From IMG/VR virus record IMGVR_UViG_3300046533_001163: a stretch of DNA of 64,000 bases; one strand, given 5' to 3'. Shown one piece after another: positions 10,523 to 27,213 of the stretch. This stretch comes from a virus (lineage: Duplodnaviria; Heunggongvirae; Uroviricota; Caudoviricetes). The first letter of the stretch is position 1. Every line of letters starts with the position of its first letter. Made by a program: the position numbers and the translations under genes. Under the pieces are notes generated by a model. It was not told the origin of the DNA. It did no database searches and saw nothing but the letters and a program-made list of their open reading frames with translations.

Positions 10523-10715
10523 TTTTCGCCAGAAACTTAGCCCAACGATTATGACTGCATACACAATCGGCATCGTTAGAATGCCCACAATCTTGACAAG
10601 TGCAACAGGTGCCGTGATTGGGGCGCATGGTGGGAATTAGCTCAACAGTGTGATTTTTTAATTGATCACAATCTCTGAGCATTGCCACTAGTTCATCAAA
10701 AAGTTCTTGGTTCAT
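10515..10715 (-). CDS. small Cys/His-rich protein
   Basis: 66 aa: CCTCQDCGHSNDADCVCSH. Confidence 0.3.
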   Translation of the reverse strand: MNQELFDELVAMLRDCDQLKNHTVELIPTMRPNHGTCCTCQDCGHSNDADCVCSHNRWAKFLAKIR

Positions 10716-11187: not shown

Positions 11188-12171
11188 TTATTTCTTGACT
11201 TGCATTAATACATAGCCAACTAATAATAAACAAGAAGCACCATAAAACCAATGATCTAATGATACCACTTCATTGTAAGGCTTCGTTAGATCTAATTCTA
11301 AAAATTGATTTGCTATGTTAGTTATCTGACGAGACATGTCCCCCGACGATGAATATCGCACATAAGATCCATTTCCTATTGCGGCGATAAATTTGAGTAC
11401 GCTCTCATCTAGGCTAGAGCGAAGCATGTTTCCTTTGCCATCAACGTAGTAGCCCTCAAAAACATTATCTATACGCTTTGTAAGCTTGCAATTATCTGAC
11501 CCTAGTCCGATGCTGCTGAACACAAAACCAAACTTCTTCAATTCACTAATATGTCTTTTAATTTCATCTCGGTCAATAGTCAATCCTTCCTCAAGGCCAC
11601 CATCAGACAATACAACAACAATGTTCTTACCGCTAGTGATTTTACGATTATTAGCAATTTGATGTAATGCAGAGAACGCACTCTCAACCGAAGTTCCTGG
11701 GATATCTACTACCTTATAATCCACTTCACGAAGAAGAGTTAAAAAAGTACTTTTTTTAGTTGTTAAAGGGCAGTATCCAATGTTTGCCGCGCCCGAGAAT
11801 GGAATCAAACTTGTGGCAGCAACACCGGGTAATTCGATATAAGATTTTTCTATTTCCTGCTTTGCGGCAACCAATCGGTTAGGCCGAATATCCTCACACA
11901 TCTGCATACTTTTGCTAACGTCCAAGAGGAAGAAAAATCGGATATCCTTATAGGCATACTTGACGACTTCCCTATAAGGCCCAGCTAGGCCAATGATAGC
12001 GCTGCCGATTGCAGCTACCAAAAGTATAACGGCAGTCATTCTGTTTTTAAAACTAGGCGTATTGCCCAGCAGACTAATCTCGCCGAATCTACGGATTCGC
12101 TTTGCGGCGATGAAGATTACTGGGATTAGCACGAAGAGGAAGTACAGGTAATTAGGTGATAGAAGGTGCAT
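11188..12171 (-). CDS. BatA-like membrane vWA-domain protein
   Basis: N-terminal transmembrane helix. LLDVSKSM DxSxS MIDAS motif. VVVLSDGG. C-terminal transmembrane helix. This is the architecture of aerotolerance BatA proteins. Confidence 0.6.
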   Translation of the reverse strand: MHLLSPNYLYFLFVLIPVIFIAAKRIRRFGEISLLGNTPSFKNRMTAVILLVAAIGSAIIGLAGPYREVVKYAYKDIRFFFLLDVSKSMQMCEDIRPNRLVAAKQEIEKSYIELPGVAATSLIPFSGAANIGYCPLTTKKSTFLTLLREVDYKVVDIPGTSVESAFSALHQIANNRKITSGKNIVVVLSDGGLEEGLTIDRDEIKRHISELKKFGFVFSSIGLGSDNCKLTKRIDNVFEGYYVDGKGNMLRSSLDESVLKFIAAIGNGSYVRYSSSGDMSRQITNIANQFLELDLTKPYNEVVSLDHWFYGASCLLLVGYVLMQVKK

Positions 12172-12177
12172 AGATAA

Positions 12178-12516
12178 TTAAGAATCTTTATACTTAACAT
12201 TAATTTTTACATCAACACGATAATTACAAGGTATTTTATTTTTATTAGCATTATATCCAGTATATCCCTTACAATTAATGGGGGTACCATCATATTCGGT
12301 TAATTTTTTGGCTACCGCAGTCTTAATCGCACTAAGAACATCTATGCTGTATCCGCCTTGCTTACAACCGTGCTTATTGCTGCAACAAGCAGTATCTTCT
12401 CGATATCCACAGTGGATATCCCGTATTAAAAATGACGAATAAAAATCACTCTCTTTAACAGTATACGTTATATCCGATGCTTCGGGAAACATTTCTAACA
12501 ATTCAAATTTATTCAT
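12178..12516 (-). CDS. hypothetical Cys-rich protein
   Basis: 112 aa. Confidence 0.3.
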   Translation of the reverse strand: MNKFELLEMFPEASDITYTVKESDFYSSFLIRDIHCGYREDTACCSNKHGCKQGGYSIDVLSAIKTAVAKKLTEYDGTPINCKGYTGYNANKNKIPCNYRVDVKINVKYKDS

Positions 12517-12677
12517 AACCTATTATAGTTCCCCAACCTTCTTCTTAATCAGCTTCTACCCTAATTGCTGCCGGGACTGGATGCGCTTCAATGTAATAGA
12601 AGCCAGCAAATGCTATCGACAGCCAAATTATAGCGACAATTAGTGGTCCAGTATCTAAATCCGTCCAAAAAGTTTTT

Positions 12678-13139
12678 TTACCCATTTATCTCATCCACCT
12701 TCATTTCAACTAAGTCCACAATTTCTTTGTTAGCCGCATCCGTCATCTTCTGCACTTCTTTGTCGTCCAACTCTTTGCGGGCCTTATGCCTAATATTTCT
12801 AATTGATATTTTCGCTTGCTCTCCTAATGCCCTCACGAATTTAATAATCTTTTCTTTCTCCTCTCCACACCTTTTTGGCACGCTTACAACCACACTGTTC
12901 TTTGAAAAGACATAAGAACTAAATCCAGATTTCTGAAGTGCCGTATTTATAGTTCCTAGTAAAGCAGGGTCATAAGGCGTGATTTGTATTCTTTTCCCGT
13001 CACTGTACACCATCGCAATGTGCTTCAATTCGGAAGTGCTTCCGTAACACTCTATCTTGACCGAATCCAGCATACCCGGAGAAACAGAGTCTCTAACCCC
13101 CTGTAGTTGCTCTACCAAATGATCTACCGCTTTGCTCAT
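12678..13139 (-). CDS. frr: ribosome recycling factor
   Basis: Aligns along its length with bacterial RRF: VRDSVSPGMLDSVKIECYG, ITPYDPALLGTI and the C-terminal IRNIRHKARKEL...VQKMTDAANKEI helix. It is shorter at the N-terminus than E. coli RRF. Confidence 0.8.
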   Translation of the reverse strand: MSKAVDHLVEQLQGVRDSVSPGMLDSVKIECYGSTSELKHIAMVYSDGKRIQITPYDPALLGTINTALQKSGFSSYVFSKNSVVVSVPKRCGEEKEKIIKFVRALGEQAKISIRNIRHKARKELDDKEVQKMTDAANKEIVDLVEMKVDEING

Positions 13140-13152
13140 TTGAGCCTTAAAA

Positions 13153-13317
13153 TCAGCACAAGCGATTTTTGTTTTTCTTCATGATTATTTCCTTTGCTTT
13201 TTCTGGGTCCATCTTAAAAATCTCAACATAGATATCGTAATCACTCATAAGTTGCATGCTCTTAAAAACAGGCGTTTTATTAGACCCTATGACATCTACT
13301 TTTACTTCTGCTTTCAT
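13153..13317 (-). CDS. small MKAEVK-leader protein (family member 1, 54 aa)
   Basis: Hand-translated: MKAEVKVDVIGSNKTPVFKS.... It starts with the same atgaaagcagaagtaaaa as the downstream paralogs. Confidence 0.35.
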   Translation of the reverse strand: MKAEVKVDVIGSNKTPVFKSMQLMSDYDIYVEIFKMDPEKAKEIIMKKNKNRLC

Positions 13318-13320
13318 GAT

Positions 13321-14310
13321 TTACTTCTTTTCGCTAACAGTCATAGCCAGATATTTTTTACCACCAAGTATCTTTGTAGAGAATCCTTGGAAAACAACAT
13401 TTTTACTAAAATCAATCCTTGTTCCACGCGACGACCGCCAGGTCGGATATTTAATTACGCTAGCGTTAATATACTCAACCGCCTTCTTAGAAATATCTTC
13501 TAACCAGATCAATTCCTTGTCTAAACTATATTCACTATCATTAGCGCTAAACGGCTTCGGACTTACATATGGAATCAACAATACAGAAGTCATGCCATCA
13601 AAATTAGATAACGAATTTGGATTTCTGTTATCAAACTTATGCTCAACATATGGAATAATTCTTCTTACTAATGAAATAGATACTCTATAAAAGTCAGTCT
13701 CTTGATGAGAGTCAAATACACGAAAAGCAGAACTAAATGTTTCTTGTGCTTCTAGACAATTAGCGATACGATAAGCCGTTTCGCCTTCTAGACCTTTAAG
13801 CATTCCTCTATCATTCCACTTTTTGTAAATATTAGCAGACGCTCCGGCCTTCTCCCAGATATCCCTATTGTCGGTCGCCACATCTTCCAATTCTAGTCCG
13901 GCACCTACGCGATGCGCATGTATAGCGTCCAATATACTATTAATAGTCTGATGTTTTTTATACGATAAAACCAACTGATCGCCTGGATCGCCGTTGATGA
14001 ATAACTGAACAAAGTGTCCTTGGCGACAATACTCGTCAAATACATCATTATCAAACATTTTAATAGATGCAATGTATTCATCTTTAAAGAAAACGGCAAA
14101 GCTGTCCGCTTCAGGAAGAGCCTTCATCTTATACCCATACTTGCAACATCTCAAATCGCTGTCGGATAATTCCCAACGATCACCGTATCCGGTCTTAAAT
14201 TCAACTTTACTCAAATCAACCGCTTCTTGCTTCTGCACACTGGCGCTTAAATTCTGGATACCAACTAATGGTAGTAACGCACCCGCACTCAAAAATTCTC
14301 TTCTTAACAT
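13321..14310 (-). CDS. secreted protein with a twin-arginine (Tat) type signal peptide
   Basis: MLRREFLSAGALLPLVGIQNLSA (RRxFL). An internal segment is paralogous to the ORF at 14375..14647. Confidence 0.5.
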   Translation of the reverse strand: MLRREFLSAGALLPLVGIQNLSASVQKQEAVDLSKVEFKTGYGDRWELSDSDLRCCKYGYKMKALPEADSFAVFFKDEYIASIKMFDNDVFDEYCRQGHFVQLFINGDPGDQLVLSYKKHQTINSILDAIHAHRVGAGLELEDVATDNRDIWEKAGASANIYKKWNDRGMLKGLEGETAYRIANCLEAQETFSSAFRVFDSHQETDFYRVSISLVRRIIPYVEHKFDNRNPNSLSNFDGMTSVLLIPYVSPKPFSANDSEYSLDKELIWLEDISKKAVEYINASVIKYPTWRSSRGTRIDFSKNVVFQGFSTKILGGKKYLAMTVSEKK

Positions 14311-14374
14311 GATCTTGTCCTTTTTGAAAATTATTACTCTATTTTATCATTAAAAATTACTTTGTCAACGTCAA

Positions 14375-14647
14375 TTATTCTAGCCCCAAATTCACACGAG
14401 AATCATGGATAAATTTTAGTGTACTCTGGACTGACGGATACTCATCTGCCTTAAGATTAACATATGCAAAAGTATCAGAGTCTTTAAAAATAACAGAATG
14501 AGCATCAGGCTCCTCGTACATCTTAACTTCTGCTATCTGTTGGTCTTGCAAGTATATCGGAAAAACCTTGCGTTCTTCCGACCACATAATATCGTAACCA
14601 TAATCAGAGCTAGTAAGCTTACATAATTCATCTTTCATATCTTTCAT
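14375..14647 (-). CDS. hypothetical protein, paralogous to a domain of the 13321..14310 protein
   Basis: VIFKDSDTFAYV...STLKFIHDSRVNLGLE matches AVFFKDEYIASI...SILDAIHAHRVGAGLELE. Confidence 0.4.
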   Translation of the reverse strand: MKDMKDELCKLTSSDYGYDIMWSEERKVFPIYLQDQQIAEVKMYEEPDAHSVIFKDSDTFAYVNLKADEYPSVQSTLKFIHDSRVNLGLE

Positions 14648-14666
14648 AATTCTTCCTTTTTAAAAA

Positions 14667-14921
14667 TTAATTTTCTTCGTAATTTAAATTCCATAAATTC
14701 GCATCACACCCATTTTGGGTAGTTATAAACCAATAGCCAACATAATATGAACTTTCCCCAAAAGATAAAAATTTAATCCCATGATGTTTAGCATATGATT
14801 TAAACTTCATCACCAAATGCTTCGGCACAGCCCATCCCAGGCTATGTGAATTACCAGAATAAACACTGAATATTGTAGATGTACTTTCATACGCAGTAGT
14901 TATCTTAACTTCAGCTTTCAT
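14667..14921 (-). CDS. MKAEVK-leader small protein (family member 2)
   Basis: Starts MKAEVKI. ATGA overlap with the upstream gene. Shares the central HLVMKFKSYAKHHGIKF and C-terminal LWNL motifs with the other members. Confidence 0.5.
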   Translation of the reverse strand: MKAEVKITTAYESTSTIFSVYSGNSHSLGWAVPKHLVMKFKSYAKHHGIKFLSFGESSYYVGYWFITTQNGCDANLWNLNYEEN

Positions 14922-15139
14922 GTTTTAAACTCCTCGTAAAACCGGTACAGATAACTTCGATTAACTTCAAATCCACTATACTTGGCGACACAAGGTATTT
15001 TATACTTTTTAATAAACTGCGCAAGATGTACGCGATCAGCAAAACTTGCGCCTTTAATAAACCTAATAGCATTATTAATATAGGTAATTGTTATTACCGG
15101 CTTTTTATGGTCAACTACTATCTTTACTTCTGCTTTCAT
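14918..15139 (-). CDS. MKAEVK-leader small protein (family member 3)
   Basis: Starts MKAEVKIVV. Conserved VHLAQFIKKYKIPC block. Confidence 0.5.
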   Translation of the reverse strand: MKAEVKIVVDHKKPVITITYINNAIRFIKGASFADRVHLAQFIKKYKIPCVAKYSGFEVNRSYLYRFYEEFKT

Positions 15140-15140
15140 A

Positions 15141-15377
15141 TTAAACTGCCCAATTCTCTACATCATACATCTTATTCATTCTGAAAACATAATTGACGCC
15201 ATCAGATGCACAGGCTAAATAATAAATTTTTGATCCCATTAATCTTTTCGTAAAAACGTCAACAACATCTGGTGGAACATATACCATTTGAGCACCGGAA
15301 ATCTCAGAAGGACCAGATTTTACCCCTCTATGACCAAAAGTGGTTTTTAGCAATTCTATCTTTACTTCTGCTTTCAT
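15141..15377 (-). CDS. MKAEVK-leader small protein (family member 4)
   Basis: Starts MKAEVKIELL. YVPPDVVDVFT...VENWAV is clearly homologous to member 6. Confidence 0.5.
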   Translation of the reverse strand: MKAEVKIELLKTTFGHRGVKSGPSEISGAQMVYVPPDVVDVFTKRLMGSKIYYLACASDGVNYVFRMNKMYDVENWAV

Positions 15378-15589
15378 TCTTGAATATTCCACTTAGTAGG
15401 ATCTACAGAGCCTGGCACCTTATAGCTATAATAACTGTACATGTGACCAGTTTGATTTTTAAAACACGGCACACCTTTACTTTCCGCTATTTCCAGGAAC
15501 TTATCAAGAACAGTCTTCTTAACCAAAATATCTTTCCATAGAGATAATTGATTGAAATTAAAAATACTTACACTAACTTCTGCTTTCAT
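15374..15589 (-). CDS. MKAEVK-leader small protein (family member 5)
   Basis: Starts MKAEVSVS. VLDKFLEIAESKGVPCF...TKWNIQE. Confidence 0.5.
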   Translation of the reverse strand: MKAEVSVSIFNFNQLSLWKDILVKKTVLDKFLEIAESKGVPCFKNQTGHMYSYYSYKVPGSVDPTKWNIQE

Positions 15590-15765
15590 CCTGAACCGCC
15601 CAATTCTCTCCATCGCTCAAATAATTTATGCCTAGTTTCCTTACTGATAGCAATCATAAATGCCGGACTTAGCAATTTCCGTCGCAACTCTTCTTTTTCA
15701 TTCTTAATTCTTGCAATTCTCTTGCGCTGAAGTCTCAGTGATTCAGATATAATGTGATAAATCAT
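15586..15765 (-). CDS. small basic protein (59 aa), not a family member
   Basis: MIYHIISESLRLQRKRIARIKNEKEELRRK.... ATGA-coupled at both ends. I preferred this start to the longer MECARM start in the ORF track, which would overlap family member 6. Confidence 0.3.
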   Translation of the reverse strand: MIYHIISESLRLQRKRIARIKNEKEELRRKLLSPAFMIAISKETRHKLFERWRELGGSG

Positions 15766-16004
15766 TCTCGCACATTCCATAATCTAACATTATGAAAAGC
15801 GGGGATGCGAAATACAGTACAGGACATTAATGGCGTTCCTTTCTGTATGAAGTATTTTACTCCACGATCTTTAGCACATGATGTAAAAAGATCAACTAAA
15901 TCTGGCGGAACATAAACATACTGTATTGTATCCCACTTACCGACATCAATATTTTTAAACGGTTGCCTGAAATCTAACAAACTTATCCTTACTTCAGCTT
16001 TCAT
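15762..16004 (-). CDS. MKAEVK-leader small protein (family member 6)
   Basis: Starts MKAEVRISLL. YVPPDLVDLFT...RLWNVRE. Confidence 0.5.
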   Translation of the reverse strand: MKAEVRISLLDFRQPFKNIDVGKWDTIQYVYVPPDLVDLFTSCAKDRGVKYFIQKGTPLMSCTVFRIPAFHNVRLWNVRE

Positions 16005-16129
16005 TTTTTATTCTTATAAGTTTTTAAATTCTGCCGAACACGTTCCGCTTTTTCACGATTACCATTACGATCTAAAACCTTCTTCAGTTGTTTCCTAACT
16101 GCATCCGATGCAATGTGGGGGCCAGTCAT
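16001..16129 (-). CDS. small basic protein (42 aa)
   Basis: Hand-translated: MTGPHIASDAVRKQLKKVLDRNGNREKAERVRQNLKTYKNKK. TAATG overlap upstream and ATGA overlap downstream. Confidence 0.25.
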   Translation of the reverse strand: MTGPHIASDAVRKQLKKVLDRNGNREKAERVRQNLKTYKNKK

Positions 16130-16884
16130 TAAAACTGTCCTTTATTCGGACTGGCTCCTACTAGCGGGCTAGTAAGCTGTTGGACTCTTTCTTCACGAGG
16201 CTTCTTTGCCTGCGCCATCATTTTTTCTTTTTGCTGAAGAAGAAGTTCAATATTAATCTGACTGTTCAAATCCTTATCCTTATACTTCAAAGAATTCTTA
16301 AATGCGTTCAGTGAATTAAGAAAAGTTTCTTCCGCATTATCGGGAGTAGACAATAGCTGCAAATGACGGAAGTAAATGCATCCTTTTGTGTACCACAACA
16401 TATAGTTGTATTCACTAGAGCCATTATAAGAAATAGTTTCAACGTAAACCTTTGCCTCATTATAATCCGATATAATACTACGGGAAAGAGTTGATATGAG
16501 CGAATGCTGCTCAGGAGTCAAATAAAAATTAGCTTCTGGTTTAGACGTATCTCTGTTATCATAAAAAACCTTATGCAGGTTTTTAGCCTTAACGAAATCT
16601 CGCTCTGCTCTACGAAGCAATGACAGCGCCATCTTAAGCTTCAGAACAGACTCAATTTCGTTTTTGTTATCAACTTCTAGTAAGGATATTTTATACTCAA
16701 TATTTTTAATGTCATCTGGCTGCGCGGGAGCTGAATTAGCATCATCCATCGCTCGCTGTACAGAAGATATGTTATTGTGCTCTGTATCAGAGCGATTCTT
16801 ATATGCAGAATATACCACATATATTACCACAATAATAAACGCATTAATACTAAGCCAAACCAACCCATTCCACAACTTACTCAT
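16129..16884 (-). CDS. membrane-anchored protein, possibly a BatC-like helical-repeat protein
   Basis: N-terminal transmembrane helix LVWLSINAFIIVVIYVVY followed by a helical/coiled region. It sits immediately downstream of the BatA-like gene. Confidence 0.35.
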   Translation of the reverse strand: MSKLWNGLVWLSINAFIIVVIYVVYSAYKNRSDTEHNNISSVQRAMDDANSAPAQPDDIKNIEYKISLLEVDNKNEIESVLKLKMALSLLRRAERDFVKAKNLHKVFYDNRDTSKPEANFYLTPEQHSLISTLSRSIISDYNEAKVYVETISYNGSSEYNYMLWYTKGCIYFRHLQLLSTPDNAEETFLNSLNAFKNSLKYKDKDLNSQINIELLLQQKEKMMAQAKKPREERVQQLTSPLVGASPNKGQF

Positions 16885-16893
16885 AAGATACTC

Positions 16894-17925
16894 CTAAACA
16901 GATGTTATGTTTTTATTAACTAAAAAAGCGGCGCAAATCATTACTAAGGCCAGCAATGCAAAATGCTGAGAAAACGACTTCTTATGCCAGACCTTAGTGT
17001 TTTTATAAGCGGACTCAATCTCAAAAATCTTCTTGTATGCCTCTGCTAAATTTTTAGGCTTAACAACTAGAAAATCTCCCCCAGTGTCCTTAACCGCTTT
17101 TAAGAAACCAGAAGAACCCATTATACCACTAATCGGCATTAAGTCAATGATATAAACAGTAATTCCGAAATTTTTACATAAATCAACGACCTTAACAGCA
17201 GAAAGATCAGACCTATTCATTGCCGTTGGATTGAAATAACCATCGGTAAAAAGAACCAGACAATTTCCCCGAGCCATTTCAGATATAGAAGATACTTTGT
17301 TTTTAAGTTTACTTATATCAGCCGTAACACCGGCTCCCAAACATCCTTTATGCATGATTTCTAAATCTGCATCAAGTAGTCCAGTATTCTTAAAGGCAAC
17401 CTTAACGCCGGTCCATAAAGCCTTTTCTACTTGAGTTCCGCCAGCAAGCGGAGGCTTTTCCCAATTAATGTCGTTCATTTTTTCTACAATGAAATCAGTA
17501 TCATCAATTAAATAAGATACAACAAAAGCATTATCTGAAAAAACAACAAAGCCCACCAAGTCCTCTCGCTTCTTTTCTTTCAGTAAATCTAGAAACTTTT
17601 CATTTGCATCCATCAATGGCTCAACTAAACTCCCGAAAACCATTGACATTGATCCGTCATTTATAAGAGTATAGCTTCTTTTTGGTGATGCATATTCAGT
17701 ATAATAACCAGAAAAGCATATTCCTACCGCTGCACAGAAAAGTGATGCACAAGCAATATAATTGAAGGCTTTTCCATAGTTAAACTTTGACTTAACGCCA
17801 GAATAAACTATAGATGAAATCTTTACATAGTATTTTGGCTTCCTTAGAATAAAAAACAAAGGAACCAATACAACTAAAAACAACCAATAAGAATGCTCTA
17901 ACGTCAAGATTAGGCTCCTGAGCAA
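16894..17925 (-). CDS. BatA-like membrane vWA-domain protein
   Basis: N-terminal transmembrane helices. MIDAS LINDGSMSM (DxSxS) ... GGTQVEKAL ... LFTDGY. C-terminal transmembrane helix. Confidence 0.65.
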   Translation of the reverse strand: MLRSLILTLEHSYWLFLVVLVPLFFILRKPKYYVKISSIVYSGVKSKFNYGKAFNYIACASLFCAAVGICFSGYYTEYASPKRSYTLINDGSMSMVFGSLVEPLMDANEKFLDLLKEKKREDLVGFVVFSDNAFVVSYLIDDTDFIVEKMNDINWEKPPLAGGTQVEKALWTGVKVAFKNTGLLDADLEIMHKGCLGAGVTADISKLKNKVSSISEMARGNCLVLFTDGYFNPTAMNRSDLSAVKVVDLCKNFGITVYIIDLMPISGIMGSSGFLKAVKDTGGDFLVVKPKNLAEAYKKIFEIESAYKNTKVWHKKSFSQHFALLALVMICAAFLVNKNITSV

Positions 17926-19382
17926 CAGTCAAGATTAACTAACTGCTTTAGTCTAACGATATCTGGAGCGGTATCCCTAGCATACGTCTTTTCCAACTCA
18001 TCAAAAATTTCATGTGCGGGGAAATATCTCGTATCATAATTTGGATTCAATTTTAAATATTCGGACATAATCTTAGCATAAACATCGCGCCAGTTATTCT
18101 GGTCGCAACCGTTTAATAGACCATTTAAAATATCCTTAAAACTAGGAATATATTCCACTATAGCAGGCTCTTTAGATGAAAAGAAAAAGTAATTAAAGCC
18201 TACCCCAATAAGAACTATAAGAACACCACATATTAGCGCAACGTACGCAAAACTCTTCCCAGAAATACTTGCAAGAACACATGGGTAATTATAGTTATCT
18301 GGTATGCTCTGAATATCTGTAATCATTGGAGTCAGTAAGCTAGATACATGAAAGACAGGATTTATTTTTATTAGGGTTGAACCAACCGTATTATTGTGTG
18401 TTGTAGAAACATAGTGATAGGCGCTAAATTGAAAAAGACCTGGAGTATAAACATGAAAAGGGTAAACAATACTATATGTCCAATAATCTTTATGATATGC
18501 CTTTTTTACCTGTGGATCTTTAAAAGCAATTAAGTTTTCGTCTATCTGCTGCATTGATAAATTAGATGAAAATGTTGCGGCAGTGACGGTAGGGTTAATA
18601 TCAAACACCGATTCAAATGTTAGATGTGCAATTTCCTCTTCTTCGGAAACCTTGTAGCTATTCGGAAGAGTGATTTCGCAGTGCAAGAACCGTTCTTCTC
18701 CAAGCGTTCCAGCACCATTATTTTCCAGCCATACCTTAACGCTAACCTGTTCTACCGGCGACATAAGAGGATGCACGCTGCTAAAGAAGGCATATCCAGA
18801 TAAAGTGGTTGATAGATATATAGAGTTTCTGTATACTCCGTAATCATCCATATGAAGAATATATTCTCCTGGGGAAATAAGCGGAGTTAGCTTAAATTCA
18901 GGCGTGTGTAAAATAGATTCTAAATACTTATTAACAGCTTCTATGGCAGATGGTTGTTTGACACTAATCCGAACGCCATCAGACAAAAAATAAAGATTAC
19001 CGTTTTCGTCCTTAATAACTGGTATCATTTGCTCATACTTACCCAATACCTTAATGGTATCCCTAATGTTATCAAACTCTATCATGTAGGCATTTGCGTT
19101 ATTACTCGCCCAAATCCCAAGCCTATCCTGCGGCCTAGATGCAGCGGCGTAGTCAGAAATTTCTTTTATGGAACCACTGTATTCTTTTACAATATCCTGC
19201 ACAATTTCAGTGCTCAACACTCCGTAGCCTGTATTACCTTTGTATAAAAGCATTTTCGGCTGTAGTTCCCAAACAACCAAATTTCCATTTTTGTTCTTAT
19301 AAGAAAAGTCGGTATCAGTATATGTTCTAGCAAAACTCACATTAGCGAGCAATAGAGTTAACACAAAACAAATAATTCTCAT
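17910..19382 (-). CDS. BatD-like protein: signal peptide, large exported domain, C-terminal transmembrane helix and a cytoplasmic tail
   Basis: Signal peptide MRIICFVLTLLLANVSFA. A single transmembrane helix FAYVALICGVLIVLIGVGF about 95 aa from the C-terminus. The call rests on topology only. Confidence 0.35.
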   Translation of the reverse strand: MRIICFVLTLLLANVSFARTYTDTDFSYKNKNGNLVVWELQPKMLLYKGNTGYGVLSTEIVQDIVKEYSGSIKEISDYAAASRPQDRLGIWASNNANAYMIEFDNIRDTIKVLGKYEQMIPVIKDENGNLYFLSDGVRISVKQPSAIEAVNKYLESILHTPEFKLTPLISPGEYILHMDDYGVYRNSIYLSTTLSGYAFFSSVHPLMSPVEQVSVKVWLENNGAGTLGEERFLHCEITLPNSYKVSEEEEIAHLTFESVFDINPTVTAATFSSNLSMQQIDENLIAFKDPQVKKAYHKDYWTYSIVYPFHVYTPGLFQFSAYHYVSTTHNNTVGSTLIKINPVFHVSSLLTPMITDIQSIPDNYNYPCVLASISGKSFAYVALICGVLIVLIGVGFNYFFFSSKEPAIVEYIPSFKDILNGLLNGCDQNNWRDVYAKIMSEYLKLNPNYDTRYFPAHEIFDELEKTYARDTAPDIVRLKQLVNLDCCSGA

Positions 19383-20164
19383 AATAGTTTCCTTACCAGC
19401 GGCAAAAGCGGATTCTGCGAAATAACATCTATACTAATCGGCGTACAATTCAATCTTAATAAATCTGTATGAATTTTATCTTGCCATGCGGCATACTTGG
19501 TCTTTGACAAATTGGCGTTCACATAGCATCCGGTTTCACCGTCAAAACAAACGCATGTTCCATAATTATTTTGATTTTCATTCATTATTAATGAATAAAT
19601 TTTATTATTAGCAGATATAAACCGAATAGCTCTTTTCGCCTTCTCCGTTAATTCAAAATAAAAATCTGAAATAATAAACACTAATGAATTTTCAGTTAAG
19701 CAGTTAGACAGCGCAGCCAAAGCGCTTTCTACATTAGACTTCCCACTAAAAACTACCCCGGCAATCGCATCCTGCACTCTGCCGTAGTCATTAGTGATAG
19801 ACATCTCTTGTGCCTTATCGCTAAACGTTAGTAACGATATTCTATCTCCAGAAAACTCAGTTAAAAACAATAGGTACAACGCTGCCAGCAAACTTACATC
19901 AGATTTATCGCCGCATTCTCCAGAACCAGACGTATCTAAAACAATATAGACATCTAGTTGTTTTTCTGGATCATATGTCTTTGCCATTATTTCATGGCAT
20001 TTAATGCTATTTTTTGTATCTATTCTCTTATCAGACGGCTGAAACTTCTTGGCTGAATTAATGTCCTCATAGTTATCCAGTAAAGATGATAGGTGATTGC
20101 CGCTTGGATAGGCGGATAGTAGGTTTTTAGCCTTTAATTCAAGGTGTCTGAAATTGCACTTCAC
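19379..20164 (-). CDS. DUF58-family protein (vWA-like, partner of MoxR ATPases)
   Basis: DKRIDTKNS matches the GDDxRxIDWK-like motif. DVYIVLDTSGSG is a DxSxS motif. LLTF, GKSNVESAL and LVFIISDF follow the DUF58 pattern. GTG start. Confidence 0.6.
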   Translation of the reverse strand: MKCNFRHLELKAKNLLSAYPSGNHLSSLLDNYEDINSAKKFQPSDKRIDTKNSIKCHEIMAKTYDPEKQLDVYIVLDTSGSGECGDKSDVSLLAALYLLFLTEFSGDRISLLTFSDKAQEMSITNDYGRVQDAIAGVVFSGKSNVESALAALSNCLTENSLVFIISDFYFELTEKAKRAIRFISANNKIYSLIMNENQNNYGTCVCFDGETGCYVNANLSKTKYAAWQDKIHTDLLRLNCTPISIDVISQNPLLPLVRKLL

Positions 20165-20193
20165 TAAATAAAGTAGTGAATACTAAATAATAT

Positions 20194-20373
20194 ATGATGG
20201 AAAAATTCACTAATTTCTTCGCTTCCTGCTCTAGCTGGATTAAAGCCAAAAAACTTCAAATTTTAAGCTACGGTATTTTGGGCGTAATCCTTTGGTGGAC
20301 GATTGTCGCGGTCTGGTGGGTAATCAAGATAATCCTATGCACCTGCTTCGGCATCTGTATCCTTTTTCCTTAA
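20194..20373 (+). CDS. small two-transmembrane protein (59 aa)
   Basis: Hand-translated: MMEKFTNFFASCSSWIKAKKLQILSYGILGVILWWTIVAVWWVIKIILCTCFGICILFP. A plus-strand ORF in an otherwise empty gap. Confidence 0.25.
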   Translation: MMEKFTNFFASCSSWIKAKKLQILSYGILGVILWWTIVAVWWVIKIILCTCFGICILFP

Positions 20374-20856
20374 TTATCTCTTCACCAAATCTTCGGCTCG
20401 TGGAAGCCAATACAGATTACTTAAAAATCCTATATGATTGTTATACGCATACTTCGGCTTAGTATATCCATTCTTGAATAGATTAAGCAATTCTTTAGAT
20501 TTAGCCGACCTAAAATAATGACCTGGACTTTTGAGTACTGCCGAAAAAATTGACTTCCTGAAGGAGTTAGCCGACCACCACCTGCCTAAATCAACATAAA
20601 TAACAAATTCTGTATCGGTAACATAAAATTTCGCTTTATTTTTAACCTTAGCATCTTTTTCAAATTCTATAATTCTGGAAACTGCATTCTCCCAGTTCCG
20701 ACTACGAAAGTAAAAATCTCTATGACCTACTAGGTATTGTTGGAGATTATCTCTACAACCGACCCAGTTGCCGTTACTTCGCGCGAATCGCATTCTTCCT
20801 CTACCATATCCGTAAATAGCGTTAGGCACATGAAGCGTACTCTTAGGTAGTTTCAT
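20374..20856 (-). CDS. hypothetical protein; tandem paralog A
   Basis: Shares MKLP and WWSANSFRKSIFSAVLKS...LLNLFKNGY with 20858..21379. Confidence 0.45.
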   Translation of the reverse strand: MKLPKSTLHVPNAIYGYGRGRMRFARSNGNWVGCRDNLQQYLVGHRDFYFRSRNWENAVSRIIEFEKDAKVKNKAKFYVTDTEFVIYVDLGRWWSANSFRKSIFSAVLKSPGHYFRSAKSKELLNLFKNGYTKPKYAYNNHIGFLSNLYWLPRAEDLVKR

Positions 20857-20857
20857 A

Positions 20858-21379
20858 CTAACCTTTCTTAACTAATTCTTTAGGCTCTTTTGTTTTTAAG
20901 TTCTCTAAAAATCCATCTGACTCTGTGTATTTTATAGACGGCACATGATACCCATCAATAAATAACTTAAGCAATTTTTGCGGCTTATCACCAGCAAAAT
21001 ACTTCTTTCTACTTTTAAGAATGGCCGAAAAAACAGACTGTCTCAAAGAATTCGCAGACCAGAAACTTCCCATTTTAACGTAAATACAATTCAATGTCTT
21101 AGTTTGATAAAATTCAGCAGGCTCTTTTAATCCCATCATTTTTTCAACATCGCGGACTCTTTTAACGCCAGATTCCCAAGTCTTATGGTAAAAATAAAAT
21201 TCATTCGTGCTATGACTCACAATATAACTATGAAAAATATCCCTGCACTCAGTCCAATAACTTGTGCGAAATTTCGCCCTATTGTTCATACTCAAGTACA
21301 TTGTACTTGGTGCGGGATTACCTGTTGGCGGTAACTTCATCTTAGCCTCAAGAAATGTAAGCTGTTCCGTTTTTAACAA
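20858..21379 (-). CDS. hypothetical protein; tandem paralog B
   Basis: FWSANSLRQSVFSAILKS...LLKLFIDGY. Confidence 0.45.
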   Translation of the reverse strand: MLKTEQLTFLEAKMKLPPTGNPAPSTMYLSMNNRAKFRTSYWTECRDIFHSYIVSHSTNEFYFYHKTWESGVKRVRDVEKMMGLKEPAEFYQTKTLNCIYVKMGSFWSANSLRQSVFSAILKSRKKYFAGDKPQKLLKLFIDGYHVPSIKYTESDGFLENLKTKEPKELVKKG

Positions 21380-21566
21380 CTAGACTGTCCGCAACTCCGG
21401 CAATAACTACATGCGGCTGTGTTTTACGCTTCCTGCTGAATGTCCGCACGCTACAATCTAAATCATCTACTAATAGGCATTGCCCACGATAATGCACAGT
21501 TAATTTCGGTGAACCAAATTTACGTGAGGCAGGTTTGTTATAATGATACCAGAAACTATAGCTCAT
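21348..21566 (-). CDS. hypothetical protein
   Basis: 72 aa ORF between paralog B and thioredoxin. Confidence 0.25.
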   Translation of the reverse strand: MSYSFWYHYNKPASRKFGSPKLTVHYRGQCLLVDDLDCSVRTFSRKRKTQPHVVIAGVADSLVVKNGTAYIS

Positions 21567-21850
21567 TTCAACTCAGCCAGTCTGCCTAAAATAATATCTT
21601 CTTTCTGAAGTCCTTCTAGCCTTGATTCTTCCTTACCATCTTTAAAAAAGATGATCGTTGGTACAGCACGAATTTTATAATGGTTCGCGGTATCAGCAGA
21701 ATGCTCCGCATCAACCTTAATAATCTTGACCACCTCTTTTAATTTGTCAAGAACTGGCTCCATCATTTTGCACGGACGGCACCAACTAGTATGAAAATCT
21801 ACTAAGACAATTCCGCTCTTAATTTCATCATTAAATTCTTTTAAATGCAT
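21563..21850 (-). CDS. trxA: thioredoxin
   Basis: WCRPCK active site (canonical WCGPCK). About 95 aa. AVPTIIFFKDGK. Confidence 0.8.
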   Translation of the reverse strand: MHLKEFNDEIKSGIVLVDFHTSWCRPCKMMEPVLDKLKEVVKIIKVDAEHSADTANHYKIRAVPTIIFFKDGKEESRLEGLQKEDIILGRLAELK

Positions 21851-22194
21851 GTTTTTTTACTCCTTACGAATGAGTTGGTCCCTGATTGGACCAACGATTG
21901 AACGGCATTAAATGAAATAAACTTAACATCTACCGCTAATAAAGCAACCTCACTCAATAAAGTTATCTGAGCGTTTTTAAGCGGCTTCAAATCCCCAATA
22001 TACGTTGACTGACCCGGACAATGATAGACAATGTATTCCTTCCCATCTAGAAGAAGTGGACCTTGAATAACCTTGATTTTATCATTAACCCTCAAACGAC
22101 GCATAGTCTTATAGGTGCCATCAGCGGAATAAATTCCGCTTGCCGTATTCCCAAGCACCCGAACTATATCGCCTACTTTAATCTTGCGCATCAA
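21841..22194 (-). CDS. hypothetical protein
   Basis: 117 aa. Confidence 0.35.
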   Translation of the reverse strand: MMRKIKVGDIVRVLGNTASGIYSADGTYKTMRRLRVNDKIKVIQGPLLLDGKEYIVYHCPGQSTYIGDLKPLKNAQITLLSEVALLAVDVKFISFNAVQSLVQSGTNSFVRSKKTCI

Positions 22195-23294
22195 TCACCG
22201 TGTACTTTAACATTTCCAAGTGTTTTAGCAATTAAATCATCAATTACATGTGATTCAGTTTGCAAATGTGGTGAAACATCAAGCAAAGAAGGAATTGCAG
22301 CGGGGTTAAGAAGCAATCGCCCTCTAAGAATTCTCGTGGCAACCGATGCAATATCAAACGGGACAACATAATCTCTACCATTTAGCATAGCGTGCGCCAT
22401 CCCGCCTGATTCAAGGTGAATCATAACACGATCATTCGCTGCGGGATGCTGCTTAAATATCTGAATATTCTCTAAAACTTTTCTTTCAGCAACAAACAAA
22501 CCGCTTTCAGCGGGATTATTAATAGCATTTAAAATTCTGGCACAGTAATAACGAATCTTGTCATCAACATAAACATGATCAAAGAAATACTCTCTTGCCT
22601 CATTTACGTCATCAAGCGTCATAACCTGCTTTAGCTCGTCAAAATTAAAATGATGAGTTCTCTTTGCTACTTCAACTTTTTCATCTGCTGTAGTCGGCTT
22701 CATCAATACTTTATAAACAAACCTATCGCTTAAAGCTTCTGAGAGCTTGGACGTTCCCTTGTGCTGCTCTGATGGGTTAAGCGTAGCAATACAAATAAAT
22801 GGATTTTTTAATTTATATGTATTATCCCCAATCGTCACCTGTTGCTCGGCCAACATTTCCAAGAATGCAGATTGCGCCTTTGGGCTAAACCGATTTACTT
22901 CATCTGCTAATAGAATATTAGCTTGATATGCGGCACCATGAACAACGTGCTTGGTTGAATCCAGTAAATACATTTCGGAACCGACTAGATCGCCTGGTTG
23001 GGCGTCTGGAATACCAGAAATTCTCTTATTAGTTCCTGCCAGAATAGACGAAACAGCTTTAACCAATACTGTCTTACCAGTCCCAGTACTTCCCTCAAGC
23101 AAAACGTGGCCGCAACCTAAAACTCGTTCTTTTGTTTCAACATTGAAATCTCTCTGGCCAACAGAGAATAGTCCCATGACCACCGTGTCAATCGCTTCAG
23201 TTTGGGCAACAATAATTCTCTTAAGAGCGTCCCGCAAAGGAAATACTCTGGTCGTAAGATATTCTTCAAATTTAGCCGGACATTTAAACTTCAT
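22191..23294 (-). CDS. MoxR-family AAA+ ATPase
   Basis: HVLLEGSTGTGKT Walker A. ILLADEVNRFSPKAQSAFLEMLAEQQVTIG. ATLNPSEQ. LSEALSDRF. Collinear with MoxR/AAA_3. Confidence 0.8.
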   Translation of the reverse strand: MKFKCPAKFEEYLTTRVFPLRDALKRIIVAQTEAIDTVVMGLFSVGQRDFNVETKERVLGCGHVLLEGSTGTGKTVLVKAVSSILAGTNKRISGIPDAQPGDLVGSEMYLLDSTKHVVHGAAYQANILLADEVNRFSPKAQSAFLEMLAEQQVTIGDNTYKLKNPFICIATLNPSEQHKGTSKLSEALSDRFVYKVLMKPTTADEKVEVAKRTHHFNFDELKQVMTLDDVNEAREYFFDHVYVDDKIRYYCARILNAINNPAESGLFVAERKVLENIQIFKQHPAANDRVMIHLESGGMAHAMLNGRDYVVPFDIASVATRILRGRLLLNPAAIPSLLDVSPHLQTESHVIDDLIAKTLGNVKVHGD

Positions 23295-24296: not shown

Positions 24297-25751
24297 TCAT
24301 TGTAATTGTAGCCCTTCCGCTACCTTCAAAGTTTTAACTTCACTCCCTACGACCAGTTCTTGTAGGAAGATTTCACCCGAGAGTTTCGCGCTCTTATTTC
24401 GGATACTGCCAACAAATTCTTTTAGATCTGCCAGACTAACCCGTAGTCCTGTAAGGACGGCTTCCTCAACGTTGTCATTCAATTTCCGCCATAAAACCCA
24501 TGAATGAATTCGTTTATCTTGGTACTTTCCTGCAAGGGTTCCCAAAACAAAATCCTTCACTCGTTTTTTAGCTTGTTTATAGAATGACAATTTTTCATTA
24601 AATCCAAGTCCTCTACGTCCTATCACGTAGGCCGCAGATTCATGGATAGTAACCTTGTGCATCCAGCGATACTTGTACTTTCCGATAATACTAGTAAACG
24701 CCGGATTAACTTTTATATACTCAACTCCATGCTCAATACATTTTCGTTCTAATAATTCTATGAATTTACGCCATACAAATGGTGCTCTTCCGCGATTTAT
24801 TTTTCTTCCGCTAAGACAAATCTCTTTTTTAAAGAACAAGTTCTCAAACACGATACCCTTATTCTTTTCTTTGGCATAATTAATTACTTGTTTTACTAAA
24901 CATCCGATATCGTAATCTCTTTTATGGGTAGAACCATATAATAAACGATTATTAATTAATGACTTGGATTCTACGAGGTTTCCATCTTTGCTTACTTCAG
25001 CCAAGGCGATTCTGTCAGGGTTTGTGTCTACCCCTATACAGCCGTTGCCTAATTTAGTTGTTGGTTCTGGAGCAGTAATTTGATAATCAATCTTAACATA
25101 AAAATGAGTGGCATCTTTTCTAATTAACCGAACATTATATGCTCTACCGCTTTGAAGTAATTCTTGCAATCTTTCCTGAAACTTTTGTGGTATGAAAAGA
25201 TGGTAATAAACCCATTTTTTAAAACCTATCGTAATTCTGAGCCTATCGCCGACAATTCTGGCATTAAGATTTCCCTGCCGAGAAGCCCTTCCGCGGCAAT
25301 AAATTTGCTTATTTCTATTATCTGTCCACTCCGCTTTTGTGATTTTGCCTAACTTGTAATCTTTCCATGCCTTTCTACCACCAAAGACAAGCTTATAATT
25401 ACTAATTAATTTATCAATTCGCCCAAGTCTTTTTTTTAATTTGTTTTTTTGTTTTAAAGAAATCTTCGTTTTTATTTTTTGCTCTATAATTTGTCTTTTT
25501 TCGCAAAATCCTTCTATTTCTGATAAAACTTTCAAATAATAAGTTTGCCCTTCATTTACGGCGTCTGCCAATTGTCTAGAATTTAAATTATTATAAATAC
25601 CCTTGGCCAATTTCTGAACCGAATAGGGCATCATCTTAGTTTTTAAAAACTTACAATATGAAAAACGAACACATGATTGAAAATCTATAATCAAACCATC
25701 TAGTTCATCAAAATTTATAGCCCATAATTCTCCATGTATAATTTTAAACAT
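24297..25751 (-). CDS. divergent TnpB/Cas12-family RuvC-fold protein lacking the zinc finger and the RuvC-III aspartate
   Basis: RuvC-I GVDTNPDRIALAEVSKDG. RuvC-II GIVFENL. VNPAFTS. After TS the CxxC...CxxC finger is absent, and DxDxNAA is replaced by TIHESAAYVIGRRG. The start MFKIIHGEL is taken just after the ALDH stop. Confidence 0.5.
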   Translation of the reverse strand: MFKIIHGELWAINFDELDGLIIDFQSCVRFSYCKFLKTKMMPYSVQKLAKGIYNNLNSRQLADAVNEGQTYYLKVLSEIEGFCEKRQIIEQKIKTKISLKQKNKLKKRLGRIDKLISNYKLVFGGRKAWKDYKLGKITKAEWTDNRNKQIYCRGRASRQGNLNARIVGDRLRITIGFKKWVYYHLFIPQKFQERLQELLQSGRAYNVRLIRKDATHFYVKIDYQITAPEPTTKLGNGCIGVDTNPDRIALAEVSKDGNLVESKSLINNRLLYGSTHKRDYDIGCLVKQVINYAKEKNKGIVFENLFFKKEICLSGRKINRGRAPFVWRKFIELLERKCIEHGVEYIKVNPAFTSIIGKYKYRWMHKVTIHESAAYVIGRRGLGFNEKLSFYKQAKKRVKDFVLGTLAGKYQDKRIHSWVLWRKLNDNVEEAVLTGLRVSLADLKEFVGSIRNKSAKLSGEIFLQELVVGSEVKTLKVAEGLQLQ

Positions 25752-27213
25752 TAGACGATAACCCTTGCGCCCATGTAATCTTATCGTCATAATTCGTAGT
25801 GACAGCAATTTTATGGCAGGTAGCATCAAAATTTCCTGATGCTGAAGGATGCCCAATTCCACTTTTCTTAATACCGCCGAACGGCACAGAACTTTCTGCA
25901 CCAATACTTCCTGCATTAAAATAAATCATTCCAGAATCAATCTCATCCTGGAACTTTTTCATCGTCCTAAAATTATCGGTTATAACGGCACAGCTTAACC
26001 CAAAATCTGTATCATTATAAATTCTAATCGCATCATCCGCATCATCAAAAGGAATAATCGCTACGTGAGGGCCAAATACTTCCTCTTTAAGAAATCGCTT
26101 GTTTGCCCATTCGCAAAGATAAACAAATGGGGATAAGAAATAACCATTACCCACCAATTTGTCGCCTTGTATCAAAACTCTACAAGAACGATCTTTTAGA
26201 ACCATTTCATTATAAGAAACAACTCTTTCCAATGATTCTTTACTAATTACAGGTCCGAAAAAACTTTTTTCATTACTTGGTGCGCCAATAACCAATTCCT
26301 TCACTCTGGCAATAAAATGAAGAACAAAACTATTCAATAGTTGCCTATGTACCAAAATTCGGCCAGCAGAAACACATCGCTGGCCAGCCAATTTAAATGA
26401 TGAATTAACACAAGCATCAAGAGCAAGGTCTAGGTTTCCATCATCCATTACAATAACGGCTGACTTACTTCCCATCTCACAAGAACAATCTTTATTCCAT
26501 TGGGTTGCACAATGCTGTTTAATTTTCATTCCAACTTCGGCGCTTCCAGTAAATAAAACATAATTTACATCACTATTCTCAACCAATAGTTTTCCGGCTT
26601 CATCTTGTCCTTGTATCATGTTGTAAACGCCCGCCGGGAAACCAGCTTCATGATACAGTTCTGCTGTTAAATTAGCTGACAAAGGCGATAGCTGACTTGG
26701 CTTATGAACTACGCAATTTCCTTCTAATATCGCTGGAGCAGAGGTCCAATGTGTGATGGCATACGGAAAATTCCATGGTGTAACACAAGCTACAACCCCA
26801 CGAGGCTTGCGAATTATAGAAATTGATTTTTCAGCAACTTCTGAAGGAATCAATTCGCCTGCCGGCAGTCTTCCTCTACCGGCAGTAATCTCGCACATGT
26901 GCTTGGCTTCATTTACTTCAGCCAATGCTTCATTCTTATTCTTGCCTGTCTCCGCACATATCACTTTTATGATATCATCTTTTCTTCGCTCAATTCGGGC
27001 AGCAAGTTTAAGAAAATACTCGCCTCTGGCTGGACGACTAATTTTACTCCATTTATGGAATGCATTTCTAGCGGCGGCTACCGATAAATCAACTCCATCT
27101 ATTACTGTATTATTGACAACTTCAAGGACTTCTTCGGTAGATGGATCTATCTTATGAAAATAACCACTTGTACCCGATGAAGTAAATTCGCCATTAATGT
27201 AATTTTTATACAT
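25744..27213 (-). CDS. aldehyde dehydrogenase family protein
   Basis: VTPWNFP. FTGSAEVG. CEMGSKS. FKLAGQRCVSAGRILV (catalytic Cys). EEVFGP. 489 aa. Confidence 0.8.
   Translation of the reverse strand: MYKNYINGEFTSSGTSGYFHKIDPSTEEVLEVVNNTVIDGVDLSVAAARNAFHKWSKISRPARGEYFLKLAARIERRKDDIIKVICAETGKNKNEALAEVNEAKHMCEITAGRGRLPAGELIPSEVAEKSISIIRKPRGVVACVTPWNFPYAITHWTSAPAILEGNCVVHKPSQLSPLSANLTAELYHEAGFPAGVYNMIQGQDEAGKLLVENSDVNYVLFTGSAEVGMKIKQHCATQWNKDCSCEMGSKSAVIVMDDGNLDLALDACVNSSFKLAGQRCVSAGRILVHRQLLNSFVLHFIARVKELVIGAPSNEKSFFGPVISKESLERVVSYNEMVLKDRSCRVLIQGDKLVGNGYFLSPFVYLCEWANKRFLKEEVFGPHVAIIPFDDADDAIRIYNDTDFGLSCAVITDNFRTMKKFQDEIDSGMIYFNAGSIGAESSVPFGGIKKSGIGHPSASGNFDATCHKIAVTTNYDDKITWAQGLSSNV

Follow-up and report, generated by a model that had tools for sequence, protein, structure and literature searches.

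Why would a very large phage carry the genes of a bacterial envelope operon? The question is raised by a 64,000-nt stretch of viral DNA from the IMG/VR record IMGVR_UViG_3300046533_001163 (hereafter the window), in which six genes, all on the minus strand, encode a MoxR-family AAA+ ATPase (MoxR), a DUF58 protein (DUF58), a 490-aa protein that we term X, a BatA-like von Willebrand factor A (vWA) protein (vWA1), a 251-aa BatC-like protein (Y) and a BatB-like vWA protein (vWA2; Table 1). To our knowledge, MoxR-DUF58-Bat operons are widespread in bacteria and, after 25 years, their molecular function is still unknown. A first-pass annotation of the window had read the locus as most of a Bacteroides-type aerotolerance (Bat) operon on a phage-like genome. 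All the open reading frames (ORFs) that it named are present on the minus strand and their coordinates stand, and Pfam profile searches recovered the MoxR (AAA_3), DUF58 and vWA domains that it had predicted. We find the conclusion well supported, as far as sequence comparison goes, that these six genes form a module passed down in a clade of huge, uncultivated phages, where selection keeps it.

The recurrence of the gene set carries this conclusion. The order MoxR-DUF58-X-vWA1-Y-vWA2 is kept in at least 11 distinct and divergent huge-phage contigs (LR756511.1, L007, L008, L009/L010, the IMG/VR contigs L011-L017 and L105; the L-numbers are our own labels), and the recurrence of six genes in the same order across such divergent contigs puts the arrangement far beyond chance. 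The relatives with the module comprise two JGI contigs (54 and 53 kb), groundwater contigs and seven IMG/VR viral contigs (38-436 kb), the last recovered by an alignment-based scan; a single-protein scan of IMG/VR gave none. In the closest record of the phage collection, LR756511.1, whose MoxR is 51% identical to that of the window, the module is one contiguous run encoding MoxR, DUF58, a 474-aa protein, a 349-aa vWA protein, a 237-aa protein and a vWA protein of ~340 aa; L105 is a closer relative of the window (MoxR 58% identical). The start and stop codons of neighbouring module genes overlap or abut in both LR756511.1 and the window, where the stop of DUF58 overlaps the start of X in an ATGA. 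Promoter-like and terminator-like sites are no more frequent in the 10.5-24.5 kb part of the window than in shuffled sequence. All six genes are under purifying selection, with dN (nonsynonymous divergence) far below dS (synonymous divergence) and dN/dS at most ~0.11, a ratio to be read with dS saturated between the compared genes. Two insertions split the module in the window. The first separates DUF58 from MoxR by ~2 kb; the second, of ~4 kb, lies between Y and vWA2. All relatives, among them the closest one (L105), have vWA2 immediately after Y, and the second vWA gene, which had been noted as lying 5 kb away from the cluster, is thus the sixth gene of the module, displaced by the second insertion.

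The phage nature of the carrier is clearest in its relatives. LR756511.1 is the circular, manually curated complete genome SR-VP_PHAGE_COMPLETE_CIR-CU-CL_42_23, of 595,163 bp, from vernal-pool mud; its scaffold is placed in both the terminase and the major-capsid trees of its describers, and its tree neighbour is an IMG jumbophage from metagenome 3300003310, which is also the metagenome of L014 (Al-Shayeb et al. 2020). With a curated complete 595-kb phage that has terminase and capsid genes as its closest annotated relative, the description of the window as phage-like is borne out. Among 5.8 billion protein clusters, ~25 MoxRs are 41-64% identical to that of the window, followed by an abrupt drop to at most 38%, the level of ordinary bacterial MoxRs, and no MoxR above 38% identity was found among 185,579 bacterial and archaeal species, represented by one genome each. 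A neighbour-joining tree joins 30 MoxRs of the phage clade into one monophyletic group that contains no bacterial sequence, and the closest bacterial MoxRs come from many different phyla. The window itself has no tRNA, rRNA or Rfam match, its genes lie nearly all on one strand, and most of them belong to no family. The MoxR of the window is also encoded on one contig of the 0.2-1 Mb size class. A DNA-level search of the cluster against phages and a tblastn search with a 958-aa window protein gave no match, and the ClpX-like matches in the window are generic rather than diagnostic. These results do not support two further suggestions of the first-pass annotation. A Bacteroides-type label or a Bacteroidota host is not borne out when the nearest bacterial MoxRs span many phyla and the host of the closest annotated relative is unresolved, and an acquisition from the host that could be dated by synteny and phylogeny is not supported either, as the phage MoxRs form a monophyletic clade of their own and the gene order is different from that of bacterial operons.

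The two predicted cytoplasmic components both stand as first annotated. MoxR matches AAA_3 at 7.8e-36 (123.3 bits against a cutoff of 27) and AAA_lid_2 with 29.1 bits against 22.7 (Pfam), and the profile of its clade matches the solved MoxR-like structure 2R44 at 1.8e-63. Its Walker A (GSTGTGKT), Walker B (ILLADEVNR), sensor-1 (ATLNP), Arg finger (SDRF) and sensor-2 (RGRL) motifs are intact, and these motifs are conserved in 10 clade members. In two relatives (L016:9110-10117 and L017:9020-10060), the MoxR gene is interrupted by an intein of 336-347 aa with a LAGLIDADG-like motif (LAGMMDTDG), which sits exactly after the Walker-A lysine (GxGK/C...THN/T); the MoxR of the window has no intein. 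DUF58, on the same strand as MoxR, matches Pfam DUF58 (PF01882) at 8.9e-11 (41.8 bits against 23.4) with an embedded VWA_2 match at 1e-10, and its DxSxS motif and distal aspartate are conserved in the clade. No transmembrane (TM) segment is predicted by hydropathy in either protein.

The two membrane vWA proteins can be told apart by type. Hidden Markov models (HMMs) of BatA and BatB were built from 17 bacterial operons and the phage proteins were scored on both: vWA1 scores higher on BatA in 10 of 10 clade members (hhalign 99.7%) and vWA2 higher on BatB, again in all 10 (hhalign 100%, E 1.4e-49). The Pfam VWA_2 match is borderline for vWA1 (27.0 bits, cutoff 27) and clear for vWA2 (5.1e-11, 43.6 bits against 27). 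The best NCBIfam match of vWA2 is BatB_Lepto (3.9e-16, below its cutoff); the Leptospira BatA and BatB models of NCBIfam are matched by the vWA proteins far below their cutoffs, and the Pfam BatA N-terminal domain (PF07584), present in the bacterial control L029, was not detected in vWA1 or vWA2 of the window at E<=0.1. The metal-ion-dependent adhesion site (MIDAS; DxSxS, T, D) is complete in both families, in all 10 members of each. The earlier view of vWA1 as BatA-like with an intact MIDAS is thus upheld, and vWA2, also described as BatA-like, is a membrane vWA protein with a MIDAS as proposed but of the BatB rather than the BatA type. By hydropathy, the clade proteins are predicted to have two N-terminal TM segments and one C-terminal segment, the latter below threshold in the vWA2 of the window. 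As the loops between TM1 and TM2 are rich in Lys and Arg, the vWA domains are predicted to be periplasmic under the positive-inside rule, a topology that agrees with that of the Borrelia BatA homolog BB0173, mapped experimentally as an inner-membrane protein with three TM helices and a periplasmic vWA domain (PMC5700661).

X is the fastest-evolving component, and its kinship emerges from profile-profile comparison. It has no Pfam, NCBIfam or PHROG family match, and the BatD profile (PF13584) finds nothing at E<=5 in six X-family members; bacterial BatD controls score 50-157 bits with two to three copies. The protein comprises a beta domain (residues ~205-360), a TM helix (~378-396) and a conserved helical tail of ~95-100 aa; across the family, hydropathy places the TM segment at ~75% of the length in all members, with a tail of ~100 aa after it. 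The N-terminal hydrophobic segment is called by hydropathy in 3 of 11 family sequences, including that of the window, and read by eye in the others. A low-confidence structural model shows an order of secondary-structure elements that matches a BatD-type layout. In hhalign comparisons, X aligns with the bacterial gene upstream of batA (probability 97.3%, E 1.7e-11, 225 columns), which in turn aligns with the C-terminal half of BatD (99.5%, E 5e-23, 271 columns), and X aligns with BatD directly at 46% (E 2e-4, 46 columns); controls that pair X or Y with unrelated operon families reach 0.3-2% (E 0.02-0.2, 16-45 columns). The alignment with the pre-batA protein spans the beta domain, an S-x-[IL]...[DI]-[IR]-[QP]-P motif just before the TM segment, the TM helix and the helical cytoplasmic tail. 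Because the direct BatD match is 46% and the indirect route runs through matches of 97.3% and 99.5%, X is best filed with the unnamed pre-batA paralog and not with BatD. The first-pass label of a BatD-like protein with a signal peptide and a C-terminal TM segment agrees with the predicted signal/anchor and TM, and a relationship to Bat proteins shows in profile-profile comparison only. The pre-batA gene, of ~340 aa and present in many bacterial MoxR-Bat operons (L029:12752-13777, L032:12792-13808, L036:5959-6987 and others), belongs to no Pfam family; as a by-product of this analysis, it proves to be a clear paralog of BatD in its C-terminal half, kept in the minimal set. Homologs of X are scarce. 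Word-index searches, whether started from X or from an alignment of six X sequences, brought back nothing beyond a piece of X itself; when 1.84 billion representatives were searched exhaustively with HMMER, a single genuine homolog (P0123, 27% identity) and two fragments came up. In the PDB, sequence-profile searches for X and for Y yielded no match with E below 0.02.

Y resembles bacterial BatC in the same type of comparison (hhalign 93%, E 3.3e-7, 72 columns; controls E 0.05-0.2). It has no Pfam, NCBIfam or PHROG family match above threshold; the Pfam models TPR_1 and TPR_2 match the Y family at sub-threshold levels (E 0.07-0.13) in one or two of five members. A low-confidence model is all-helical, and eight of 10 members have a predicted N-terminal TM segment, a count that rises to nine with residues 45-63 of the over-extended L016 ORF included. 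Y had been annotated as a membrane helical-repeat protein closing the run; its relationship to Bat proteins shows in profile-profile comparison only.

What would such a module do for a phage? The six genes evolve at graded rates (MoxR < DUF58 < vWA1 and vWA2 < Y < X), rising from the cytoplasmic to the predicted periplasmic components, with X the fastest. In the relatives L006 and L007, the module has genes for replication and nucleotide metabolism around it (PolA, NUDIX, DnaB, dCMP deaminase) and not virion genes. We think it probable, though by no means assured, that the module encodes an ATP-driven inner-membrane complex that modifies or stabilises the host envelope during infection. The six proteins would be made in the infected cell, and the four membrane proteins would insert into the host cytoplasmic membrane, so placed that the two vWA domains with their MIDAS motifs, the bulky N-terminal portion of X and Y's helical domain are exposed to the periplasm. 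Hexameric MoxR and its partner DUF58 would remain cytoplasmic, with access to no more than the conserved X tail and the short basic loops in vWA1 and vWA2. MoxR would hydrolyse ATP and, through DUF58, drive the assembly or remodelling of the membrane complex, as MoxR-vWA pairs do for other clients, and the likely outcome would be a host envelope that is changed or stabilised while a very large phage goes through its long infection cycle. X and Y, as fast-evolving periplasmic parts, would present the surfaces that face the host, and in the subclade of the window the co-located thioredoxin may supply reducing power. We prefer a role at the envelope because a Rhizobium relative is envelope-linked, because the module lies among replication genes and because four of the six products are membrane proteins. 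The Rhizobium relative is the RL3499-RL3502 operon, tied to cell morphology and envelope integrity in the title of a paper cited in PMC5700661.

Several points weigh against this role. We know of no Bat system with a known route from the cytoplasmic ATPase to the periplasmic vWA domains. The topology of the module rests on prediction, and the fold models of X and Y have low confidence, with predicted local distance difference test (pLDDT) values of 49 for X (two sequences) and 51 for Y (single sequence). The match between Y and BatC may be generic TPR similarity. PHROG and Pfam searches, including 20 further proteins, recognised no capsid, portal, terminase or tail hallmark within the window, so the phage assignment of this contig rests on its relatives, together with the style of its gene content. 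The host of LR756511.1 is unresolved, with 82% of its genes lacking taxonomic affiliation and Proteobacteria accounting for 4% (Al-Shayeb et al. 2020). The role of Bat operons is unresolved even in bacteria, where deletion of bat genes in Leptospira gave no detectable phenotype (PMC3557215).

A bolder version of the envelope role, which we regard as unlikely, makes the module a new apparatus of host takeover, in which X, Y and the two MIDAS domains, periplasmic and quickly diverging parts of a phage-built, ATP-driven envelope complex, would bind host-specific targets in the periplasm or outer membrane; its purposes may include excluding competing phages or re-engineering the envelope for the production and release of very large virions. 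If true, it would offer a minimal, six-gene and first tractable system for the function of Bat and MoxR-vWA envelope operons. The rate gradient invites a related reading, in which the complex would exclude superinfecting phages or counter defences by blocking competitors at the envelope, or would be a vWA-MoxR conflict system carried by a phage: the periplasm-exposed X and Y outpace the cytoplasmic parts several-fold in their evolution, as expected in an arms race. Such speed equally fits adaptation to different host envelopes, PADLOC returned a generic AAA match on MoxR (DolB, 41 bits against 123 for AAA_3) and none on nine other proteins tested, including the other five of the module, and the bpMoxR score is 22.6 against a cutoff of 27, with no effector, beta-propeller or nuclease partner present; we hold this reading to be quite unlikely.

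Viral MoxR and vWA pairs have also been proposed to act as chaperones (p618/p892 in Acidianus two-tailed virus, ATV, PMC4124505; the MoxR pair in 0305phi8-36, PMC2147016), MoxR ATPases are generally chaperone-like, and huge virions plausibly need help in assembly, all of which would suit a module that folds or assembles capsid or tail structures. Four of the six proteins are predicted to be integral to the membrane with periplasm-facing domains, the neighbours in L006 and L007 are not structural genes, and the homology of the components is with the Bat set of the bacterial envelope and not with the soluble viral pairs, which makes a chaperone for virion assembly improbable. We consider it more doubtful still that the module serves redox balance, supplementing the Bat system of the host so that the periplasm stays reduced and the cell survives oxidative stress. 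The name Bat goes back to a mutant of Bacteroides fragilis whose aerotolerance was reduced (Tang et al. 1999, by its title in PMC5700661), and a thioredoxin with an intact CxxC lies inside the module in both the window and L105 (49% identity). Most clade members have no thioredoxin in the module, thioredoxins are common in phages for other reasons (this one falls in PHROG 22, of the DNA, RNA and nucleotide metabolism class), and nothing ties these phages to anaerobic hosts. Aerotolerance, which had been implied as the function, is not established even in bacteria, where bat deletion mutants of Leptospira show no oxidative-stress phenotype (PMC3557215). Finally, that the window is a chromosomal or mis-binned bacterial fragment with an ordinary bat operon, as its housekeeping-like genes (ClpX, ribosome recycling factor, aldehyde dehydrogenase) and missing capsid, portal and terminase might suggest, is extremely improbable and a bacterial chromosomal origin effectively ruled out by the identity gap (a best MoxR of 38% among the 185,579 species against 45-64% in phage contigs) and the curated phage relatives, the closest annotated one having both terminase and major capsid protein, along with the monophyly of the MoxR clade, the nearly one-strand, mostly family-less genes and the lack of tRNA, rRNA and Rfam matches in the window.

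An ATP-driven complex acting on the host envelope, the role that we favour, would mean that phages have a use for a Bat-type envelope machine during infection. The phage set further points to a plausible minimal functional core of MoxR, DUF58, one BatD-like anchor, BatA, BatB and one TPR protein, in which the unnamed pre-batA gene emerges as a conserved and probably essential component. It also supplies a concrete and testable example of what has been said of huge phages in general, namely that they have proteins with a predicted location at the host membrane or cell surface.

Table 1. Module genes, insertions and other features of the window (positions counted from its first nucleotide)
Feature	Coordinates	Strand	Length	Description
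Gene 1, MoxR	22191-23294	-	367 aa	MoxR-proper AAA+ ATPase; predicted cytoplasmic
Gene 2, DUF58	19379-20164	-	261 aa	vWA-like adaptor; predicted cytoplasmic
Gene 3, X	17910-19382	-	490 aa	Hydrophobic N-terminal signal/anchor, phage-specific alpha/beta region, BatD-like beta domain, TM, tail
Gene 4, vWA1	16894-17925 (start at 17907 according to the gene caller)	-		BatA-like; two N-terminal TM, vWA with full MIDAS, C-terminal TM
Gene 5, Y	16129-16884	-	251 aa	N-terminal TM, then all-helical TPR-like (BatC-like) domain
Gene 6, vWA2	11188-12171	-	327 aa	BatB-like membrane vWA with full MIDAS
Insertion 1	20374-22194	-		Between MoxR and DUF58; outside the conserved six-gene core
ORF in insertion 1	21841-22194	-	117 aa	SH3/KOW-like N-terminus
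Thioredoxin in insertion 1	21563-21850	-		WCRPC active site
ORF in insertion 1	21348-21566	-	72 aa
Paralog in insertion 1	20858-21379	-		Member of four-member family
Paralog in insertion 1	20374-20856	-		Member of four-member family
Insertion 2	12178-16004	-	~4 kb	Between Y and vWA2; window-specific, not part of the module; tandem small ORFs, 329-aa ORF, ribosome recycling factor, 112-aa ORF
Small ORFs in insertion 2	13153-16004	-	54-84 aa	At least six in tandem
Ribosome recycling factor in insertion 2	12678-13139	-		PF01765
Paralog outside the module	9157-9882	-		Member of four-member family
Paralog outside the module	35326-36240	-		Member of four-member family
ORF next to vWA2	10696-11172			HH...CHNCH motif
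TnpB/Cas12f-like ORF	24297-25790	-	497 aa	SSO2105_N and weak Cas12f1-like TNB domain
Laminin_G_3 protein	59993-63763	-	>1250 aa	Three Laminin_G_3 domains

The first insertion had been described as an embedded thioredoxin and a tandem paralog pair, and both are real. The thioredoxin (Pfam 4.5e-23) has its active site and cis-Pro intact, and the paralogs are 41% identical (E 2e-36); they are part of a wider family of four in the window (E 1e-5 to 9e-17) with no known domain, one member of which also stands after vWA2 in L105. The thioredoxin, the 72-aa ORF and one paralog occur at the same position in L105 (38-52% identity). The insertion is absent from LR756511.1, L007, L008 and L009, in which MoxR abuts DUF58, the junction is also direct in L017, and other small inserts occupy it in L012-L015. 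The start of the 117-aa ORF overlaps the stop of MoxR; its N-terminus matches KOW4_SPT5 at E 5e-4, below the cutoff, and although bacterial BatE has an SH3 domain, this ORF is without demonstrated homology to BatE and is not conserved in the relatives.

Within the second insertion, the small ORFs carry MKAEV[KR] at or near their starts, some of them are paralogous (E 1e-6 to 4e-9), and none has a family match; the ribosome recycling factor matches PF01765 at 1.9e-26. To the left of the window, the same contig encodes further translation-related proteins, one with a YqeY domain and one resembling M24 methionine aminopeptidases (L101 10001-10441 and 11940-12686). For the neighbour of vWA2, Pfam gave no match at E<=0.01 and so does not confirm the earlier call of an HNH endonuclease; its HH...CHNCH motif was read by eye only. 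Between an aldehyde dehydrogenase and the genes upstream of MoxR lies a TnpB/Cas12f-like ORF, with SSO2105_N and a weak Cas12f1-like TNB domain just under the Pfam cutoff; L105 has an HNH/NUMOD4 homing endonuclease between the aldehyde dehydrogenase and MoxR. Further off lies a protein with three Laminin_G_3 (concanavalin-like lectin) domains (1.1e-48), followed by an amidoligase and a sigma-70-like factor; in a related JGI contig its length is 1645 aa, and it may act as a fibre or bind the host.

How, then, does the module relate to known systems? The genome scan returned 80 bacterial MoxR loci, many with the canonical operon, of which representatives were annotated. The canonical bacterial order is MoxR, DUF58, a TPR-like gene, the unnamed gene of ~340 aa (signal peptide and one TM), BatA, BatB, BatC, BatD and BatE, with PF07584 and VWA in BatA, TPR in BatC, two to three PF13584 domains in BatD, and TPR and SH3 in BatE. 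Like the bacterial Bat operons (B. fragilis BatI; Leptospira; Borrelia bb0170-bb0176; L029, L032, L036, L060 and L063), the phage module has an AAA_3 MoxR followed directly by DUF58, a single-pass BatD-like membrane protein before a BatA-type vWA protein, a BatB-type vWA protein and an N-anchored TPR-like protein, and the predicted membrane topologies match. Profile and profile-profile comparisons thus bear out a gene content of the MoxR-DUF58-Bat type. Unlike those operons, the module has neither BatD proper (three DUF11-like domains, ~600 aa) nor BatE, in the window or its relatives, and no extra TPR-like gene after DUF58; its BatC-like gene lies between the two vWA genes instead of after them (order X-A-C-B), X has a phage-specific N-terminal region of ~180 aa, and its MoxR, encoded on a phage, is only 30-38% identical to bacterial homologs and falls in a separate clade. 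The claim that the window holds most of a Bat operon is accordingly not supported, with BatD proper and BatE missing and the third gene being the unnamed pre-batA gene. It is well supported by these comparisons that the phage module represents a streamlined, permuted and lineage-specific version of the bacterial MoxR-DUF58-Bat operon.

Other MoxR-vWA systems share part of this make-up. Like ATV p618/p892 and orf66/orf63 of Bacillus phage 0305phi8-36, the module links a virus-encoded MoxR-type ATPase to a vWA partner (PMC4124505; PMC2147016). Those systems have two genes with no membrane proteins described, and the ATV proteins are virion-associated or interact with virion proteins; the present module has six genes, four of them predicted to encode membrane proteins, with Bat homologs. 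The phage CobS/CobT-like AAA+/vWA genes (PHROG 249, 'porphyrin biosynthesis') likewise encode a MoxR-related AAA+ protein, and the MoxR of the window matches phrog_249 at 4.1e-15, but with 57 bits against 123 for AAA_3; a CobT-like partner is lacking, and the partners are DUF58 and Bat-type membrane proteins. The vWA-MoxR ternary conflict systems (Kaur, Burroughs, Iyer, Aravind 2020, PMC7159879) similarly use a MoxR ATPase and a vWA protein as a functional pair, from which the module differs in its sub-cutoff bpMoxR score, its lack of a beta-propeller or effector component and the lack of PADLOC support. The main text of the huge-phage paper (Al-Shayeb et al. 2020) mentions neither MoxR nor vWA, and the literature searched held no description of a phage-borne Bat-type module. 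Viral MoxR and vWA pairs and bacterial Bat operons were already known; what is new is a six-gene Bat-type membrane module borne by phages.

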